Part shown: positions 27,740 to 59,200 of the stretch, in pieces | Layout of the letters: every line of letters begins with the position of its first letter | Numbering within the stretch: position 1 is the stretch's first letter | Made by a program: the position numbers and the translations under genes | Notes under the pieces: model-generated | What the model saw: only the letters and a program-made list of their open reading frames with translations | The model's database searches: none | Told to the model about the DNA's origin: nothing | Assembly: GCA_964016885.1 (NCBI GenBank) | Contig: OZ024742.1 | Span: 45,384,001-45,448,000, forward strand | Reading direction: 5' to 3' | Source of the DNA: Eledone cirrhosa | Lineage: Eukaryota | Length of the DNA stretch: 64,000 bases

Positions 27740-29245
27740 TTTGATCTGACAGTAGTTAGAGGGTGTGTCTGTTTCCTAGATATCACCCAGTTGATCCGAC
27801 AGCAGTTAGAGTGTGTATCTATTTCCCAGAGATCACCTTATCTGCCACCCAGTTGACCTGACAGTTGTTAGGGCGTGTTTGTATTCCCCAGAGATCACTC
27901 TATCTGCCAGATAGTTGATCTGACACTAGTTAGAGCGTGGTTGTATTCCCCATAGATCACCCTATCTGTCACATAGTTGATCTGACACTAGTTAAGGTGT
28001 GTATGTATTCCCCAGAGATCACCCTATCTGTCACATAGTTGATCTGACACTAGTTAAGGTTTGTTTGTATTCCCCAGAGATCACCCTATCTGTCACATAG
28101 TTGCTCTGACACTAGTTAAGGTGTGTATGTATTCCCCAGAGATCACCCTATCTGTCACATAGTTGCTCTGACACTAGTTAGGGCGTGTTTGTATTCCCCA
28201 GAGATCACCCTATCTGTCACATAGTTGATCTGACACTAGTTAGGGCGTGTTTGTATTCCCCAGAGATCACCCTATCTGTCACATAGTTGATCTGACACTA
28301 GTTAGGGCGTGTTTGTATTCCCCAGAGATCACCCTATCTGTCACATAGTTGATCTGACACTAGTTAGGGCGTGTTTGTATTCCCCAGAGATCACCCTATC
28401 TGTCACATAGTTGCTCTGACACTAGTTAGGGCGTGTTTGTATTCCCCAGAGATCACCCTATCTGTCACATAGTTGATCTGACACTAGTTAGGGCGTGTTT
28501 GTATTCCCCAGAGATCACCCTATCTGTCACATAGTTGATCTGACACTAGTTAGGGCGTGTTTGTATTCCCCAGAGATCACCCTATCTGTCACATAGTTGC
28601 TCTGACACTAGTTAAGGTGTGTATGTATTCCCCAGAGATCACCCTATCTGTCACATAGTTGCTCTGACACTAGTTAGGGCGTGTTTGTATTCCCCAGAGA
28701 TCACCCTATCTGTCACATAGTTGATCTGACACTAGTTAGGGCGTGTTTGTATTCCCCAGAGATCACCCTATCTGTCACATAGTTGATCTGACACTAGTTA
28801 GGGCGTGTTTGTATTCCCCAGAGATCACCCTATCTGTCACATAGTTGATCTGACACTAGTTAGGGCGTGTTTGTATTCCCCAGAGATCACCCTATCTGTC
28901 ACATAGTTGCTCTGACACTAGTTAGGGCGTGTTTGTATTCCCCAGAGATCACCCTATCTGTCACATAGTTGATCTGACACTAGTTAGGGCGTGTTTGTAT
29001 TCCCCAGAGATCACCCTATCTGTCACATAGTTGATCTGACACTAGTTAGGGCGTGTTTGTATTCCCCAGAGATCACCCTATCTGTCACATAGTTGATCTG
29101 ACACTAGTTAGGGCGTGTTTGTATTCCCCAGAGATCACCCTATCTGTCACATAGTTGATCTGAAACTAGTTAGGGCGTGTTTGTATTCCCCAGAGATCAC
29201 CCTATCTGTCACATAGTTGATCTGACAGTAGTTAGAGGGTATATT
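27740..29245. repeat. Minisatellite, 62-bp unit, ~23-24 copies
   Basis: GTTGATCTGACACTAGTTAGGGCGTGTTTGTATTCCCCAGAGATCACCCTATCTGTCACATA in tandem. Confidence 0.97.
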
Positions 29246-33628: not shown

Positions 33629-33638
<10 letters not shown>

Positions 33639-34168
33639 AGAATCAAAGCTATGTTCAAAGCATTTATTCACTTACAATTGTTTCATCCAAACCTAGGCTT
33701 GGAGTCTTCGGAGCATTTTTCAATGTTTGTACACATACTTGACCTCCTTTCGAACGCAAGAGACATACAGATACATATGTATATATTGATGTACAGTGGA
33801 GTGACATATATTATATTATATTATTTCTGAATGGCAATTTAAATTCAAAATCAAAATCACATTAAAACAGAATCAAAGCAAAATTAAAATACAAAATTAA
33901 TGCAAAATTAAAATACAATTGGCAGTTAACATAGATAATTGATTGATTTTGAATTTAAATTGCCATTCAGAAATAATATAATATAATATATGTCACTCCA
34001 CTGTACATCAATATATACATATGTATCTGTATGTCTCTTGCATTGGATAGGAGGTCAAGTATGTGTACAAACATTGAAAAATGCTCCGAAGACTCCAAGC
34101 CTAGGTTTGGATGAAACAATTGTAAGTGAATAAATGCTTTGAACATAGCTTTGATTCTTGTGAATTCT
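33629..34168. repeat. Long inverted repeat (~225-bp arms, ~88-bp spacer)
   Basis: 33629-33854 is the reverse complement of 33943-34168 with only a few mismatches. Confidence 0.95.
34082..34128 (+). ncRNA. Minimal type I hammerhead-like motif (mirror copy on minus strand ~33669-33715)
   Basis: tgct-CCGAAGA-c-[tccaagcc ta ggtttgga]-t-GAAAC-aatt-GTA-agtg; palindromic helix III ACAATTGT; core has C instead of U at position 4. Confidence 0.55.
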
Positions 34169-34328
34169 ATATAACTGCTCTGTAGAACAACTGATGTTAT
34201 TACATTGAGCTATTTATCTTACTGGTAATAAGGTAGTAATAAATTACTGACCTTCACTGTTTAGGGTTTAAAATATATATAACTATAAAAAGTTTTAGTA
34301 TATACATAACCATAAATAGTATCCTTAA

Positions 34329-34373
<45 letters not shown>

Positions 34374-34460
34374 AAGATTGGAATTAAAGTATTCCGCAGT
34401 TCACAGTAATAATAATAATACTAGCTCGAAGAAAAACAGAGAATTTTCATCTGAGTTCAA

Positions 34461-35080
34461 ATACAAATATATTACACAGAGAGAAGTGTGTTACACAGTG
34501 AGATGTGTGTAAAAAATTATTACATGTGAGTTTAACCGTTACTGTATGGAGAACAATACCTACAGGTTAGCAATTAAATAGAAAAAAACCTAAGTCAGAA
34601 TCAAATCTCTGAAGTAGAGTTTTAAATTACTAACCTTATAACTATAAGCTTGCTGATACGAAATTAGTTCGTTTCACCACAGAAATGTGTGGTATAACAG
34701 CCCATAGGATCTTCAGTCAGCAAGTATGGGTACTGTTTACCACACTCCTAGCCTAGGCTAGATGTGTGGTAAACATCTTAGGCTAGATGTGTGGTAAACA
34801 GTACCCATACTTGCTGACTGAAGATCCTATGGGCTGTTATACCACACATTTCTGTGGTGAAACGAACTAATTTCGTATCAGCAAGCTTATAGTTATAATT
34901 TAAAACTCTACTTCAGAGATTTGATTCTGACTTAGGTTTTTTTCTATTTAATTGCTAACCTGTAGGTATTGTTCTCCATACAGTAAATGGTATTCTCCAT
35001 ACAGTAATGGTTAAACTCACATGTAATAATTTTTTACACACATCTCACTGTGTAACACACTTCTCTCTGTGTAATATATT

Positions 35081-35085
<5 letters not shown>
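34461..35085. repeat. Long inverted repeat (~285-bp arms, nearly spacer-less)
   Basis: 34461-34745 mirrors 34789-35085; centre CTAGCCTAGGCTAG. Confidence 0.95.
34810..34885 (+). ncRNA. Type I hammerhead-like motif with atypical helix II (mirror copy ~34648-34723)
   Basis: cttgctga-CTGAAGA-...accaca/tgtggt-GAAAC-gaa ctaat ttc-GTA-tcagcaag; 8-bp helix I, 5-bp helix III. Confidence 0.65.
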
Positions 35086-35138
<53 letters not shown>

Positions 35139-35141
<3 letters not shown>

Positions 35142-35801
35142 TCATCATCATCATCGTTTAATGTCCATCTTCCACGCTAGCATGGGTTAGACGGGAGTTG
35201 TGCCAACTTGAGGCAAGGTTAGTCGGGTGACCGTGTCTTGCTCGTATAGGACTATCTGGCAGGCTTTCTACGGCTGGATGCCCTTCCTAACACCAACCAC
35301 ATTTACAGTGTGGAACTGGGAACTTTTTACCGTGTTACCTACACGGCCACATTACAGCGTGGACTGTGAGTAGTTTTTTTTTTTTTTTTTTGTCGTGACA
35401 CCTACACGATCTCGATCTCATTTATTTGGACTGGATGTTGTGGAACCAACTTTACAGAGAGAGGGTGGTGTTGGTGGGAGTGGGAGGATAGGGTAGGGGT
35501 AGTGGATTGGGGTGTATATTTAGTTAAGAGGTGCCTACTGACTGTAGGTTTCACTTTGTACATAGGCAAGGTGGGTCTTCTGTATTACTGCATAGCGGCA
35601 AAGATCTCGGTCCAGTGACATTGTCTTAGAGAGGTGCAAGTGTGTAAGGTTGGAATTTATCAGATCGTCCCAGGTTTTTCTGGGTCTACCTACTCCGTAA
35701 CTACCATCAATTTTGATCGCCCTGCACTTTTTTATGCAGCTGTCGTCTTTCATGCGCATCACGTGACCATACCAACATAGTCTTCTTTCAAGTAAACAGC
35801 A
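35139..35801 (-). mobile_element. RTE 3' fragment between (TA)n runs
   Basis: ORF 35535..35897 (part); (GAT)n tail. Confidence 0.92.
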
Positions 35802-35953
35802 TATATATATATATAATATAGAGAGAAGAAAACGCATGAGAGAGTGCATGTTTATCAGGTTACAAGGGATACCACTAGCTTTTTCCTTTGAGCTCATGAA
35901 TTACAGGGACTAACACGAGTTTCTGACTCCATTACTTCCACCAACAGTTTTGC

Positions 35954-36167
35954 AAGAGATTTTAACATGAATGGACCTGTTATTTTTATCTATTTTTTTC
36001 AAATTTCAACCCGGCCGTCCCCTCAATCTATCTTATTTCTCATTCTTTCTTTTGATGAAGGACTTGCGTCCGAAATGTTAAGACCCTCTTCCTGCTATAT
36101 CAAACGTTAACCTAATATATACCTTCCATATACTGTACCAATTGTGTTGTTATTTCTGTTTACCTTT

Positions 36168-36172
<5 letters not shown>
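35954..36172 (+). mobile_element. ~220-bp non-coding element with minimal hammerhead-like core (Penelope pLTR/retrozyme-like)
   Basis: TTGATGA-a-ggac ttgc gtcc-GAAA-tgTTA at 36052-36080; inverted copy at 38484-38704, partial copy at 44272-44410. Confidence 0.65.
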
Positions 36173-36247
<75 letters not shown>

Positions 36248-36833
36248 CATATATATATATAATAAATAACAAACAAACAAACAAATTATCGCTCTACATG
36301 GCTGAATACAATAAATGTAATCTGAGTTTTTCGAATATTAATAATAATATTCGATTCGTTTGCAATTATGCAAACAGCCTCTTTTAAGCCATGTCAGTAG
36401 AATGAGCCCCTCATTCTTGCTCTTGTGTTGGCATGTAAACAGAAATGCAGAGACTAATGTTTCTGGGTATTACCCTTCATCAATGCAGTTCACTCTTCAC
36501 CTGCCAACTATCAGAGCTAGTGAAAATATATGATGTTTTCTAAAATATACAGTGACTGATCGGCCTGATTTGCATATATATATATATAAAATGGCGAGCT
36601 GTGTGGTTGAAATTAAGTATAACGAAAAATAAAAGTTACGTCGAAAGAGGGTAATATCCATCGTCAGTTGTCTGCTAGGAATCATAGGTATTTCTTCGCA
36701 TTAGAGACAAGATACCTCAGCCTAGGGCGAACAATAACTAAAATAAGTTACTTTTTCCACGGAAACTTCAACACTTATATATATATATATATATATATTT
36801 TTAAATCCACTGTCAGTAAATACACCAGGATTT

Positions 36834-36894
36834 TTTCATTCTGATGACTGAAAGCAAATTTTGCTTGCTTTCAAGAAACCACTGGTAAATGAAA
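36834..36894 (+). ncRNA. Type I hammerhead ribozyme motif
   Basis: tttcatt-CTGATGA-c-[tgaaagcaa attttgc ttgctttca]-a-GAAAC-c act g-GTA-aatgaaa; all three helices pair; cleavage triplet GUA. Confidence 0.78.
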
Positions 36895-36927
36895 TAATTA
36901 TCTTATGTTGTTTATTACATAACTAAA

Positions 36928-36969
<42 letters not shown>

Positions 36970-36972
<3 letters not shown>

Positions 36973-37783
36973 TTGTATGATGCCTGCATACGAACAGCAA
37001 TGTTGCATGGCAGTGAGACCTAGGCATTGTGTGCAGAGAATATACACAGACTAGAGAGGAACGAAGCTTGCATGCTCCGCTGGATGTGTAATAGTAATAT
37101 ACGTGAACGGCAAAGCATAAATGAACTAAGGGAAAAATTAGAAATAAGAGGGATCAGATGTTGTTTACTCGAGAGAAGGCTATGTTGGTATGGTCACGTG
37201 ATGCGCATGAAAGACGACAGCTGTATAACAAAGTGCAGGGCAATAAAGATAGACGGTAGCCACGGAGTAGGCAGACCCAGAAAAACCTGGGACGACCTGA
37301 TAAATTCCGACCTCACACACTTACACCTCTCCAAGACAATGTCACTGGACCGAGACCTTTGGCGGTACTCAGTAATAGAGAAGACCTGCCTTACCTAAAT
37401 ACAAAGTAAAACCTACTACAGTCAGTAGGCATCTCTAACAAAATACACCCCCGTCCCACCCGATCCGCACCGCCCCTTTCAATGTAAAGTTATGTTGGTG
37501 CCACAACATCCAGGCCGAAACAAATGAGATTGTGTAGGCGTCATGACAAAAAAACACACAGTCCACGCTGTAATGTGGCCGTGTAGGCAACACGGTAAAA
37601 ACCTCCCAGTCCTTCACTGTAAACGTGGTTGGTGTTAGGAAGGGCATCCAGCTGTAGAAAACCCGCCAGACAGTCCTATGCGAGCAAGACAACCACTCTT
37701 GCCTCAAGTGGGAAAACTCCCGTCCAAACCCATGCAAGCGTGGAAGATGGACGTTAAACGATGATGATGATGATGATGATGAT
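36970..37783 (+). mobile_element. RTE 3' fragment between (TA)n runs
   Basis: ORF 37027..37398; (GAT)n tail. Confidence 0.93.
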
Positions 37784-38338
37784 ATATATATATATATTAT
37801 GAAGTAAAATGACAGGAGGCCAAATAGGTTGAATTTCCTCAATTATATATTTCTGCAAACATAATGCACATTTCAGTGGCCAGGTTGCGTAAGAACCCGA
37901 TGACATCTTCAGATGCAAATTGCATAATAGATGAATACCAACGGAATGATGGTAAACACATTCCAAGAGGATTTAAGGAAAAAAGCAAAGAAAAAACAGT
38001 GAAAAAAAACGTGTGTTTATGTGTTTGACTCAGTGACGATCGAAGCAGCATGTTGTTATTAGGCCCCGTCATCTCTGAGTGATTATCTTCAACAGATCCT
38101 TCCTAAGGTGAAACTAATTGTTCTCAGAAATGGTGAATTAACTGTTGTGGAACTACTTCTACCAAACTCGTCCCATGGACTGAGTGTTGTACTACTACGG
38201 ATATAACTCACCAGTGTTCTACTATATATATATATATATATATATATAAGCAAAATGAATAAATGTAGGAGTTGCATGTCGTTAGAACAAAATTTTACTT
38301 CTTACATGATGTTTTACCTTACGATACATATATCCTCT

Positions 38339-38374
<36 letters not shown>

Positions 38375-38483
38375 AAAGGCAAATAGAAATAGCAAAGCAA
38401 ACGTCAGTAAAATGAAGAAATATATTATTAGTTTTACGCTTGATATAGTAGGAAAAGTTTATATATATATATATATATATGTA

Positions 38484-38701
38484 TGTAAAAGGTAAACAGA
38501 AATAACAACACAATCAGTACAGTATATGGAAGGAATATATTAGTTTAACGCTTGATATAGCAGGAAGAGGGTCTCAACATTTCGGACGCTAGTCCTTCAT
38601 CAGAAGAAAGAATGAGAAATAATAGATTGAGGGGACGGGCGGGATGGAATTGGAAAAAATGTTTTTAGATAAAAATAACAGGTCCATTCATGTTGACATC
38701 T

Positions 38702-38704
<3 letters not shown>
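38484..38704 (-). mobile_element. Second copy of the ~220-bp hammerhead-like element
   Basis: Reverse strand CTGATGA-a-ggac tagc gtcc-GAAA; same ends as 35954-36172. Confidence 0.65.
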
Positions 38705-48455: not shown

Positions 48456-48618
48456 TTAAAGGCCGGCTGCTATCTGTCTGTTAATTTTTTCTATAAGAAG
48501 ATAATCCAGTCGACGTTGCCTGTATCGGACTACAGCATAAGAAAAGAGACCTGTTAGAGCTGTCAGACATTCAAAAAGCAAAAATCTTTTCTCTTCTTTC
48601 CATGTATTTGTTGGGCAA
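48456..48618 (-). CDS. JTB: JTB last coding exon (TM helix, basic tail, TAA)
   Basis: AG acceptor; CPTNTWKEEKRFLLFE...RQIAAGL*. Confidence 0.9.
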
Positions 48619-49669
48619 CTACAATATAAATAAATATATAAATTTGTTATTATAGAAAGTTATTGTTTTTTTTTAAAGACATACTTGACAAATATTTTAT
48701 CAGATTTTGATAGAATAATCCATCATCTTAACAGAATTTAAAAGGATAATTTATTATGTTAGCAGGATTAAATTGAAGAATTCCTGTTGTTTTATGAATA
48801 TAACACACACATATATATACATGTGTGTATATATATACACACAAGGGTAGGCTGAAAAGTTCATAGGATGACTATGAAGGAGTGATGCTATGAAATCTAA
48901 AAACATCCGGTCCATGCTATAAAATGGAGGTGATAGAAGTGGCATTTAGCCATTAAAAAGCATGCCAAAGTATGGGGTGGAGAGGGTCTCTAAGACAACC
49001 ATTCTAGTGCTGGTGGCACAAATAAAAGCACCCAGTCCATGCTGTAAAGTGGTGCTGATGATATGAAGGGCATCCACCCAGTATATTATTAATGCCAAAT
49101 TATGAGCACAAAATACAAATATCACAACAATAACTGCGTAAACTGTAATAACACTACCCATGTTATGGCTGTGCATGGTAGTGGGGTGGCTAGTGCGGCC
49201 ATGTGTGAGACCCCCCCCCCCCCCCCCGACCATCATCAAGTAATTGCACAACAACAATAATAACAATGATGATGATATATAGTGTTATAACACCATCATC
49301 ATTTTACATCTACTTTCTGTGCTGGCATGGGTTTGATAGTTGTAGATACCATCCTATACATGTTAGATGACATCTTGTTTCCATGTTTTATTTTTGGCAT
49401 GAGTGTATTAGGAGCATTTTATTATGGTACTAGCCCGAGAGATATTGTCAAGTATTCAAGCTACCCTATAATTATATAAATAAAGGGTTGGAGGGATCCT
49501 CAGTTGTGTCAAAGGCATGACAACCTCCCTGAGCATACATGAGACCATACATAAACACCCAAGTCCCTGGCCTGCCTAGGAGATTAGTAGCTCCACTTCG
49601 GTACTGACTATATGGACCTCTCCAACCCTTGCTAGCAGGGAAAACAGACATTTAAATGACAATGATGAT

Positions 49670-56620: not shown

Positions 56621-56814
56621 AAGGAAAGAATTATTTGAAATTGAAATGTTGTGTGTGTGTATTAAAATAAATAAGTGTTTTTGATTTTCTCTGTAGACAC
56701 GAGGCAACCTTAGCTCACTGCTTATTTCTGAAAGTGACTAATACGATAGATTGTTAATACATGATGTATTATTATGGTTGATGAACCCAGTTGGTGCTTG
56801 TATAGACTTTTTTT

Positions 56815-59200
56815 TCCGTTAAATAACAATTGCTTAGCTAAAAATATAGTATATAATTGTAATGTAAAAACTAATTTAAATTCATTTAATTATGTAGGAT
56901 CTACTTCCACAGATTTTAAATCCTGTTTCAATAACCATAAAAACTCTTTTACACATCTAAACAAAAAATCTTCAACCTCTCTATCTAGTTCATTATGGGA
57001 CCTCAAATTAAAGAACGTTAAATATTCGTTGCTTTGGAATATTATTTCAAAAGCTACTCCTTTTAACTCCTCTTCAGGAAATTGTGATCTTTGTATAGAG
57101 GAAATATTCTTTATATTAAAGACCAAAAATTCCCTGAACCTAAGGAACAATTTATTCAGTTGCTGTAGACATAGATTGAACTCAACGTTTAAATATAAAT
57201 TTAAAATGTAATATATAATTAATTAATTCTATTAATATATTGAACCTATCGATAAATCATTAGATTCCTTCATTTGACTGCTTAAGCTCTCAAGTTAAAA
57301 AATTTTTTTTTCATAAATATAAATAAAAATAAAAAATTCTTCTAGAGAAACATACTTGTTTCTACTTTAGGCACAAGGCCAGCAATTACCCAGTGCATTA
57401 CTGGTACTTTATTTTATCGACCCCGTAAGGATGAAAGGCAAAGTCAACCTCGGCGGGATTTGAACTCAGATCGTAAAGGGACGTAACTATGCTTGAAAGC
57501 ATGGCGTCCGACCCTCTACCGATACTGCCAATCCACAAGGGGAAAATATTTTATTTGAAAGTTTCTCCTACTTTTGAAAGTTTCTCTTTCTTTTTCTTAT
57601 GGCTATAAAATTAAGTTAAACATACTGAGAACTAAATATTATATAGAAACTTTAAATTTTTATACTGAATCTATTAAACATATTCTTATTTTAAAATTAT
57701 AACTTGAGATATTCTATAATATTTAAAAAAAAATTTTTTAAATTATAGTGATTTAAAAAAAAATTATATTGATTTAAAGTTATATTGCTTATAATTATAT
57801 TTCCAAATCGTAATATAATTCATTTTTATTTTTTATTTTAATTTATTTTATTTTATTTTATATTATATATATTATGTACTTCAATTATACTATGTACTGT
57901 ATTTATAAATCTCTCTCTCTAAATGTATGTGTGTATATATATATATGTATGTATATATATATGTGTGTATGTATGTATATATATACGTGTGATGCATATC
58001 TACCTGTATGTGTAAGTATGTATATGTGTATCTATGTGGGGATTGTGTGTATATATATATATGCATACAATTCGAATGCACTTGTTTATAAGGATTTTCT
58101 TAAGGTTCGTGATAAACAAACTTATATAATAACAGTCACAACTACATAACAGGTGGATTTATTAGATATAAAACTTATATTAAAATAAATTTGTATAATA
58201 ACATAAGATTTGCATAACCTAAAATTTCCTTTACTATCTTAACATTTGTAACATTTAATATAAGTAAATAACTTAATTTCCTTCACGCTGTTTTGATATT
58301 ACATAGAAATGATTTTCTCGGTTTTTTCTGAGATTTTCTCCGAAAAATCTATTAGTTTATGAAAATTCCTATATTGTATGTATCTATATGTAGGTGTATG
58401 TATATATATTTATATGTATATATATCTGTGTGTGCGTATGGATATATATGAATATATTCTTTTAATAATATATAGATTTTTTTATAATATACAGTCTTAA
58501 TAATATATAGATTTCTTAATAATATATAGATCTCAATTTTTTAATGTATAGATCTCATAATCTAATTGATAAACTAAACATTTAATCATATTTGAACAAT
58601 GGTTAAATTCTCCTATTATTTATGTTATTTTCCATTCACGCTTATTTAAACTTCTCTACTCATCCATTAAATATTTATTCTTTCACTTCATCTCAAAAGT
58701 TAAGCTAATACAACAACCTATCACTTAGAGCTTTCGCTTTCTCTTTTCTTTTTTCTTCTTTTTTTCCTTTTCTTAGAGTTTGCTCTTTTTTCTCTTTTTT
58801 TTCTATCTCTCTTTTTTGTTTCTCTCTCTCTCTTTCTCCATAATCCAACGGCTTATTTAAATCTACTCTGATTTAAAATTTCCGAAACTAATTTACATAA
58901 TAGTATAAATAAATTTATAACCCCACTATCCGGGAGCTTCCAACAGAAATGGTCGCATTCTTTAAGGGTATGTCAATATTTATTTATAAAACTGCTCTAT
59001 ATTATATTTTATCTGATGAAAGCACACCATAATTTAACTTAGTGTCCTTGAAATATGTATAATGAAATAAATATGGTTTTATAAATATAGTTTCCATTTG
59101 TTAATATATCATATTTTTACTCCAATAATTTGTTGAGTGCTTTATATCAGTTATAAAAATATTTGCTTGTTGTATCCCAACAATTTAAATAGAACTTCTA
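56815..59200 (+). mobile_element. Penelope-like element 3' remnant: GIY-YIG endonuclease plus AT-rich trailer (right end uncertain)
   Basis: ORF 56774..57211: C..KNIVY..NYVGST..FK..NNH..CDLCIEE..LNLR..CRH; decayed CTGATGA..GAAA motif at ~59013. Confidence 0.78.
57357..57537 (-). mobile_element. Young Meta-domain SINE
   Basis: Reverse strand A-box TGGCAGTATCGG, B-box GAGTTCAAATCC, Meta domain. Confidence 0.88.

Follow-up and report, generated by a model that had tools for sequence, protein, structure and literature searches.

In this study, we analysed a stretch of 64,000 nucleotides (nt) from the genome of the cephalopod Eledone cirrhosa (assembly GCA_964016885.1, contig OZ024742.1, positions 45,384,001 to 45,448,000; hereafter the window, whose own coordinates are used throughout) and, within it, the interval 33629–38704. 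This interval is a chain of repeats, here called cassettes, with (TA)n separators between the pieces, as a first-pass annotation made from the sequence alone had described. Very probably it consists of independent insertions into TA microsatellites: four ends of protein-coding Penelope-like elements (PLEs; cassettes A, C, D and F), four units without an open reading frame (ORF) that were likely mobilised by PLEs in trans (B, E, H and I), and two ends of long interspersed nuclear elements (LINEs), with one of the ORF-less units, cassette I, carrying a permuted hammerhead ribozyme that is predicted to cleave itself. The cassettes belong to identifiable repeat families that show two fixed 3′ ends, truncation and inversion, microsatellite flanks and tandems, and the permuted motif covaries in four helices. 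The interval is largely known PLE biology; the permuted ribozyme within it is the new part.

A permuted hammerhead in cassette I

36590..36750, minus strand: cassette I, the 3′ part of an ORF-less 579-nt tandem unit of the retrozyme type
36660..36731, minus strand: permuted hammerhead in cassette I, with the 5′ strand of stem II at 36731–36727

The first-pass annotation had overlooked the intact permuted hammerhead of cassette I (36731–36661, minus strand), together with a decayed type I core at 36483 (minus strand) in cassette H. The motif of cassette I is a non-circularly permuted hammerhead whose blocks follow each other in the order S-G-C (NUH, GAAA, CUGANGA), and it is intact in the window: on the minus strand the triplet AUC lies at 36713–36711, GAAA at 36694 and CUGACGA at 36667–36661. 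The ribozyme is predicted to cut between 36711 and 36710. In the predicted fold, the strands would be ordered as stem II 5′ strand, cleavage block, GAAA block and CUGANGA, a kink-turn-like loop would fold stem III back, stems I, II and III would meet at their distal ends, and only the first stem II pair (10.1-11.1) would still use the base after A9.

Across 1.66 Mb of fetched loci, a descriptor for the S-G-C order identified 41 distinct sites, among which stem I covaries across families and pair 15.2-16.2 switches between UA and CG. Genome-wide, the pattern of the permuted motif gave 18,903 matches against 31 for a reversed-pattern control, and all three blocks in S-G-C order gave 10,788 against 0. 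Among 21 aligned representatives, 92.4% of the cells in the four helices are paired against 80.4 ± 1.0 after shuffling, and 15 of 22 pairs show double changes, which 0 of 500 shuffles reach (slid-helix controls, 28–45%); as the aligned motifs are related repeats, these shuffle counts cannot be read as probabilities. Copies that were truncated or had internal deletions (such as L442, L289, L142, L411 and L112) were left out of the alignment, as was a divergent group misregistered by MAFFT, which was counted together with L253 by motif anchors. This motif-anchored count of 29 sequences, biased in that the stem II register was picked for each sequence, gave 164/174 for stem I against a shuffle maximum of 140.

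Stem II is completed by the strand upstream of the cleavage block (83% paired, three of five pairs with double changes). A conventional stem II, with its strand right after CUGANGA, was tried and rejected (34% paired, only the first pair covarying). Beyond an internal loop that resembles a kink-turn, stem III continues as the fourth helix. In this loop, G1b, A2b and A1n are invariant (21/21) and position 2n has 16 G and 5 U, with a plain 3–5-nt bulge in the same place in the divergent group. A kink-turn has a 3-nt bulge followed by tandem G-A and A-G pairs, between two helices. The loop of stem III would supply the bend that a single molecule needs.

The permuted motif is carried by ORF-less units of ~530–780 nt, which are flanked by TA and form partial or full tandems; in one locus of a sister family (L436), four such units follow each other, every one with the motif, and TA lies on both sides of the tandem. 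In most copies the motif lies 14–130 nt from the 3′ end. A pattern scan of metagenomes gave three matches, all without stem I pairing, which were taken as chance. These comparisons give strong support to the permuted ribozyme as a new variant of the published permutations.

Published permutations and Naiad elements

Here and below, statements on cited papers refer to those parts of them that were compared with our data. Non-circular hammerhead permutations were described by Eckert et al. (2023; PMC10085705), who found type SGC in metatranscriptomes and CSG in two metagenome sequences, and none in the genome of a known organism except for one weak bacterial GCS candidate. Type SGC cleaves in vitro, and the authors assumed that CUGANGA stays beside its stem II strand. 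Cassette I shares with type SGC the S-G-C order of NUH, GAAA and CUGANGA, the core positions, the short linker between stems I and II, and covarying stems I and III. In contrast to type SGC, it resides in an animal genome, in more than 10,000 copies within retroelements, it has the kink-turn-like stem III loop, and its stem II 5′ strand lies upstream of the cleavage block, a placement assumed to be absent in PMC10085705. Because it has neither a stem II strand directly after CUGANGA nor the interaction helix that joins the outer stems I and II, we did not count cassette I as a member of type SGC. No earlier report of a permuted hammerhead in an animal was found in the open-access literature searched, a search that did not extend to the supplements of PMC10085705 and of bioRxiv 10.64898/2026.07.22.740005. 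A 2026 paper cites the permutations, with no animal case among the passages compared (PMC13725137), and the word ribozyme is not used in the compared parts of the Octopus vulgaris repeat annotation (PMC13282606).

Among PLEs, the Naiads were stated to lack canonical hammerheads, eight of them being labelled 'HHR_half_core' (Craig et al., 2021; PMC8557442). Read by eye in the supplement of that paper, the 3′ ends of Naiad_Obim and Naiad_Ovul have the same permuted fold as cassette I, with a 6-bp upstream stem II strand, the same internal loop, a GUA site, a 6-bp stem I and a 5′ flank near-identical to that of cassette I. Six nematode Naiads (three Nbra, Hcon, Hpol and Asuum) show, likewise by eye, the C-S-G order with three complementary stems, and the octopus Naiad form is this nematode cycle opened between A9 and stem II. 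Most of the other Naiad ends compared from the supplement have no such motif in their last ~330 bases by eye. Several bivalve and hemichordate Naiad ends carry another conserved, structured-looking 3′ motif without CUGANGA, and some ostracod and spider Naiads have CUGANGA with GAAA upstream (PMC8557442 supplement). The Naiads have (TA)n targets, tails and inversions in common with cassette I; unlike them, the family of cassette I has no ORF, and the compared parts of PMC8557442 describe no permuted fold. In this genome, no Naiad ORF was found in checks upstream of the permuted motifs, a tblastn with Naiad proteins not having been made.

The ribozyme of cassette I was most likely inherited from Naiad-clade PLEs, and a permuted hammerhead is a likely explanation of why Naiads were thought to lack hammerheads. 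It seems fairly probable to us that these observations belong together: Naiads would have permuted hammerheads, of C-S-G order in nematodes and in cephalopods of a seventh arrangement, opened inside CUGANGA and closed by a kink-turn; ORF-less retrozymes (at least 19,000 copies) would have taken this ribozyme over and would cut and circularise their RNA, which the PLE reverse transcriptase (RT) would roll into TA microsatellites, with 200,000–300,000 motifs genome-wide.

Weighing the self-cleaving fold

Besides the relatedness of the aligned repeats and the biased stem II register, several findings weigh against our reading of the interval. Stem III barely beats the shuffles in the motif-anchored count of 29 sequences (106/116 against a maximum of 105). 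Pair 10.1-11.1, between the base after A9 and the base before G12, is standard in just 14 of the 21 representatives and occurs as four pair types, and a closing helix after A9 was rejected as unsupported, 133 of 300 swapped pairings being as good. A PLE protein match upstream of the permuted motif was found in 0 of 87 cases, while 1 of 121 motifs has an upstream PLE-type motif, stop-interrupted and due to chance, and the exact Naiad_Obim-type motif and flank has 0 matches in this genome. An autonomous partner was not found for B, E, H or I. None of the PLE fragments matches Pfam RT or GIY-YIG above the cut-off, so that their clade assignments rest on motifs. In A, C, D and F the core is no more conserved than its flanks, and the window copy of B misfolds, with no hammerhead at minimum energy.

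The bend required by the single-molecule fold is sharp, its linkers having zero to one base, the motif is located in tandem units, and most PLE hammerheads need dimers (PMC4209133). The hammerhead of cassette I might require two tandem units to work, which would form a strand-swapped dimer: CUGANGA of one would complete the core of the next. We consider this unlikely, however, as published type-SGC ribozymes cleave as monomers (PMC10085705), the units lie 580–780 nt apart, and the kink-turn-like loop (the 3–5-nt bulge in the divergent group) sits exactly at the bend that the monomer requires. A little less likely still is that the motif has lost cleavage and persists as a structured relic or, close to where RT starts, as a site bound by PLE protein. 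Such a role would suit its place close to the 3′ end and the finding that hammerhead cleavage is dispensable for PLE insertion in vitro, the protein being required (PMC11167929); moreover, eight of nine tested Xenopus retrozymes failed to cleave (bioRxiv 10.64898/2026.07.22.740005). Yet the catalytic positions are all kept across divergent families, the variation falling on positions 7 and 17 and on the UA/CG switch of 15.2-16.2. Our preferred reading is a single-molecule ribozyme that is predicted to cleave itself.

Make-up of the locus

Annotated elements account for 4,460 of the 5,076 bases of the interval, the remainder being mostly microsatellite. In addition to cassette I, they are as follows.

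33629..34331, plus strand: cassette A, a putative 5′-truncated end of a Hydra-clade PLE; 5′ inverted arm at 33629–33854; cores at 34086 (plus) and 33711 (minus)
34372..35083, plus strand: cassette B, a foldback insertion of an ORF-less 539-nt unit of PLE type; cores at 34818 (plus) and 34716 (minus)
35140..35802, minus strand: LINE 3′ end with an (ATG)n tail and no hammerhead; a longer relative (locus L152) matches Pfam RVT_1
35939..36171, plus strand: cassette C, copy 1, end of a Neptune-like PLE; hammerhead decayed, T at C3 (36052)
36262..36576, minus strand: cassette H, an ORF-less unit of ~430 nt; type I core at 36483 (minus) decayed in the window copy
36800..36926, plus strand: cassette D, short-end 3′ piece of a second putative Hydra-clade PLE; intact type I hammerhead, core at 36841
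36971..37785, plus strand: LINE 3′ end of the same family as the piece at 35140–35802, with an (ATG)n tail and no hammerhead
37802..38104, minus strand: cassette E, 3′ piece of an ORF-less unit of ~2.2 kb with the partial-tandem structure of PLEs; type I core at 37912
38095..38222, plus strand: cassette F, 3′ end of a third putative Hydra-clade PLE, cut within its own hammerhead
38372..38460, minus strand: extreme 3′ end of a C-related family, the ribozyme lying outside the piece
38484..38704, minus strand: cassette C, copy 2, end of a Neptune-like PLE; core CUGAUGA at 38603
35820–35938 and 38250–38342: segments with one weak match each

The cassettes are intergenic and lie, as the first-pass annotation had it, between PDIA3 and JTB, with exons of the PDI family at 2068–26912 (minus strand) on one side and a Pfam match to JTB at 48471–48626 (minus strand) on the other. 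Its view that all cassettes are non-coding fails for ~1.5 kb (35140–35802 and 36971–37785) of LINE coding sequence, two pieces that we take to be RTE-like.

A type I descriptor found cores with pairing stems at 34086 (plus) and 33711 (minus) in A, 34818 (plus) and 34716 (minus) in B, 36841 (plus) in D and 38603 (minus) in C; a slightly different descriptor also found the core at 37912 (minus) in E and the decayed 36052 copy of C. The four hammerhead-bearing cassette types proposed in the first pass thus stand, with cores at 34086, 34818, 36841 and 38603 and stems that pair in A, B, D and C, except that the 36052 copy is decayed and that the CUGANGA core assumed for all of them reads CCGAAGA in A. 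Of the two weaker candidates, at 37865 and 38074, the former lies in E, which has its type I core at 37912, and the latter lacks CUGANGA and is an E (minus)–F junction with the 3′ half of the F ribozyme. This fusion is head-to-head, at 38095–38104, over ~10 nt of microhomology and possibly reflects a template switch. With a relaxed descriptor, the 12 non-TA segments contain six cores; 300 dinucleotide shuffles averaged 0.017 and never reached six (0/300). An Rfam scan of the region with E values up to 10 gave 34 matches, none of them to a ribozyme family.

Elsewhere in the window, two further type I motifs lie at 59013 (plus; an AT-rich family common in the sampled DNA) and 44399 (minus; a C-related copy). 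At 27789–29235, just upstream of the PDI-family gene, a 62-nt unit is repeated in tandem in 23 copies that are 96% alike.

Ends of coding Penelope-like elements

Judged by the protein motifs of longer relatives, cassettes A, D and F are 5′-truncated ends of Hydra-clade PLEs and C is the end of a Neptune-like PLE. Four long copies of A (loci L151–L154) are colinear over 2.6–3.6 kb and lead into an RT and GIY-YIG ORF with the motifs RWR, DKT, YRDD, CxCX5C, GIY-YIG and CxxC/CxH. For D, a Hydra endonuclease upstream and the D ribozyme downstream occur in one locus in 4 of 30 loci, and the protein is 26–30% like that of A. A Hydra C-terminus lies immediately upstream of F in loci L254, L265 and L266, the first of which retains a decayed stretch from the RT thumb to the endonuclease. 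Published Hydra-clade elements have a single ORF of RT and C-terminal GIY-YIG, with CxCX5C, no CCHH, and CxxC/CxH around E and N (PMC8557442). The CxCX5C linker and CxxC/CxH are intact in A and D, and F keeps CxxC/CxH with a decayed linker; for the clade's RWK/DKT marks, A reads RWR and DKT, those regions having not been recovered for D and F. The parent of C has an RT (RYIDD) and an endonuclease with the CX4CxxC linker and CCHH that mark Neptune elements; it is closest by eye to the Neptune1_Ap alignment row of PMC8557442, and its Pfam GIY-YIG match is weak (E 0.005) and below the cut-off. Atlas assigned the PLE fragments to GIY-YIG-like clusters (0.95–0.97).

From Octopus, one Hydra-clade family, Hydra-1_Obim, has been published that carries a hammerhead and targets (TA)n (PMC8557442 supplement). 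Our families share with published Hydra and Neptune PLEs the protein motifs, type I minimal hammerheads with a palindromic stem III, (TA)n targets, and 5′ truncation and inversion (PMC8557442; PMC4209133), although A, D and F are families other than Hydra-1_Obim and differ from it in ribozyme sequence. A, D and F have a canonical hammerhead near the 3′ end and insertion into (TA)n, with the deviation that A carries C at core position 4 (30 of 32 copies); this family-wide C, and the long 3′ untranslated regions (UTRs; ~1.7 kb in A) of the families, are further differences from the published PLEs. Family A is young, so a PLE with C at core position 4 was recently active. The first-pass annotation had described the cassettes as small non-autonomous elements, allowing that the novelty would drop if they were ends of known Penelope families; the description suits B, E, H and I, and the reservation applies to A, C, D and F.

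The 3′ UTR of family D (loci L161–L190) holds TA/TG microsatellites of its own and a nested 50-nt piece of another ribozyme family; with these microsatellites, the elements spread new target sites. An intronless-looking ORF with some resemblance to a thermolysin-like metalloprotease adjoins a family D copy (L159:3-2108), and at 56765–57211 (plus strand) the window contains a decayed Hydra-type endonuclease ORF (CNC...C, YVG, CDLC, CCRH).

Integration signature

The genome-wide copy-number check proposed in the first pass revealed that each cassette is a dispersed repeat rather than single-copy, with neighbours that vary between copies. The first-look candidates, which are not copy numbers and of which 40 were scored per search, numbered 2574 for A, 1127 for B, 4693 for C, 1301 for D, 4504 for E, 2859 for F, 2952 for H and 1616 for I. 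The window copies are 88–99% like their nearest relatives, and so of differing age; given this and the differing neighbours, they were inserted one at a time. The 3′ end abuts a microsatellite in 32 of 36 copies of A, 32 of 35 of C, 35 of 40 of D and 24 of 27 of F. Two fixed 3′ ends, short and long and not located at the ribozyme cut, are found in each of A, B, D and F, and the long end of A runs into the ORF start in locus L151. The two foldbacks already recognised in the first pass, A (arms 98.7% alike over 226 nt) and B, each combine an arm that stops at the short end with one that extends to the long end; in A it is the left arm that stops at the short one.

These double ends agree with the two internal RT start sites ('tail') of PLEs in vitro (PMC11167929). 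Tandem and inverted structures and a TA bias of PLEs have been described (PMC8557442), and opposite-strand hammerhead pairs 100–700 bp apart were noted in 2014 (PMC4209133). Of the two mobilisers suggested in the first pass, PLEs are borne out by the two 3′ ends, partial tandems and 5′ inversions of the cassettes, while RTE elements find no support, the cassettes being without the (ATG)n tail of the adjoining LINE pieces. Following the published PLE work, the GIY-YIG endonuclease would nick (TA)n and RT would start at two internal RNA sites, giving a short and a long end, one per foldback arm. Every insertion would leave TA runs on either side as targets for renewed hits. The ORF-less units B, E, H and I would borrow the PLE enzymes, and their tandem transcripts would be cut by their own ribozymes into monomers, which may circularise.

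ORF-less, retrozyme-like units

By their sequence organisation, B (539 nt), E (~2.2 kb, colinear), H (~430 nt) and I (579 nt) resemble retrozymes: these units have no ORF and bear the complete integration signature of PLEs. In B, the 3′ tail continues into the unit's own 5′ body, and 5′ truncation, inversion and partial tandems are seen (60 loci, some overlapping), the tandems reaching ~1.7 units with two ribozymes (locus L195). Tandems with the hammerhead in consecutive units also occur in E (L227), H (a dimer, L370) and I (dimers), the window copies being all sub-monomers. Loss of the 5′ part is steep in E, whose 3′ end has 4504 first-look candidates and whose 5′ body has 41. Six-frame translation or tblastn of the B, E and I units revealed neither a match to PLE proteins nor a long ORF; with 13 PLE fragments as queries for ORF remnants in E, the best tblastn E value was 3 or worse, and in the two loci where the H unit was read no parent ORF lies upstream. 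Two run-on candidates for an autonomous parent of B (L214 and L201) were rejected, as they end in microsatellite or unrelated DNA, and a low-stringency search of all fetched loci gave only more B copies.

Changes are rarer in the core than in the non-CpG flanks both in B (10/530 against 475/11379, p 0.003) and in E (13/436 against 577/7266, p 2e-5), in copies that are not independent. Free position 7 varies in 14 of 53 B copies, the core being otherwise conserved. In the family B alignment, a mismatch at the stem II base changes on both sides between subfamilies (U-U, A-C, C-C, A-G).

A canonical type I hammerhead in a unit of ~150–1000 nt, as in retrozymes, is present in H only: stem II of B is atypical (a 2-bp base and a weakly folding 28-nt insert), E is too long and I has the permuted ribozyme. 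Metazoan non-LTR retrozymes consist of tandem units that have no ORF, measure a few hundred bases and contain a single hammerhead apiece (PMC7229834), and animal retrozymes have been proposed to be non-autonomous PLEs on the basis of co-occurrence and of trees of pseudo-long terminal repeats (pLTRs) (bioRxiv 10.64898/2026.07.22.740005). B, E, H and I have in common with them ORF-less hammerhead tandems for which a PLE origin is proposed, but differ from those of the preprint in that the arrays themselves carry PLE tails, inversions and TA targets, and from the published ones in that some have a permuted instead of a type I ribozyme and that E is much longer. Cephalopods are not covered in the compared parts of either source. 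ORF-less PLE-type retrozymes are thus a modest extension to cephalopods.

Outside the window, a 310-nt retrozyme has a type I hammerhead in every unit and forms arrays of 14 and 8+8 units that are 98–100% alike.

L302:6883-10000, L311:1-1310 and L312:667-5880 (C9 and C1 of this genome): arrays of the 310-nt retrozyme

In a pattern search, its short 3′ end has 493 exact (TA)n junctions against 0 for the control, and 19 of 30 loci have an inverted arm, the other arm ending ~30 nt further. This young retrozyme, with its PLE-type inversion and tail, supports the proposed step of mobilisation in trans.

Hammerhead abundance

In 40 evenly spaced 10-kb stretches, families A–F occur nine times (0.23 per 10 kb) against seven times in the 5.1 kb analysed here, an enrichment inflated by the definition of these families from this very locus; in the flanks of family members, other cassettes occur at 0.23–0.80 per 10 kb. 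Counted over all families, the sampled 400 kb contain 43 type I motifs (0–4 in ten shuffles), or ~1 per 10 kb. Many families are represented (loci L271–L310), 13 of the 43 motifs sit in tandem arrays, and in 3 of the 40 stretches there are five to seven motifs that belong to several families. Extrapolated from these 400 kb, the genome total is 200,000–300,000 hammerhead motifs. The window cluster is a dense yet common case in this genome. Of the microsatellite landing pad suggested in the first pass, the dispersed repeats, the 3′ ends abutting microsatellite and the differing ages of the copies remain, but not an exceptional site.

The reading that every cassette is a small non-autonomous retrozyme, perhaps mobilised by RTE enzymes, and that the locus is a special landing pad, is very improbable: four families lack an ORF, seven insertions of six families are packed into 5.1 kb and LINE ends are interspersed among them, but A, C, D and F trace back to PLE ORFs, which refutes it for these four, the ends show PLE tails and inversions instead of a LINE tail, and similar multi-family clusters occur in the sampled stretches. 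Independent insertion of PLE ends and ORF-less units remains our preferred reading.

Implications

If the permuted motif cleaves, it would be, within the reach of our search of open-access literature, the first ribozyme of non-circular permutation known to reside in a retroelement and in the genome of an animal, with a strand arrangement beyond the six deemed possible. A whole class of genomic ribozymes would have been missed by standard descriptors and by Rfam. The ORF-less arrays with PLE tails and inversions would be direct genomic evidence for animal retrozymes moved by PLEs, and may provide short natural templates for in vitro work on PLE mobilisation. If our reading is true, the published statement that Naiad PLEs lack hammerheads would be overturned, and the ribozyme would be near universal in PLEs, making its role there a sharper question.

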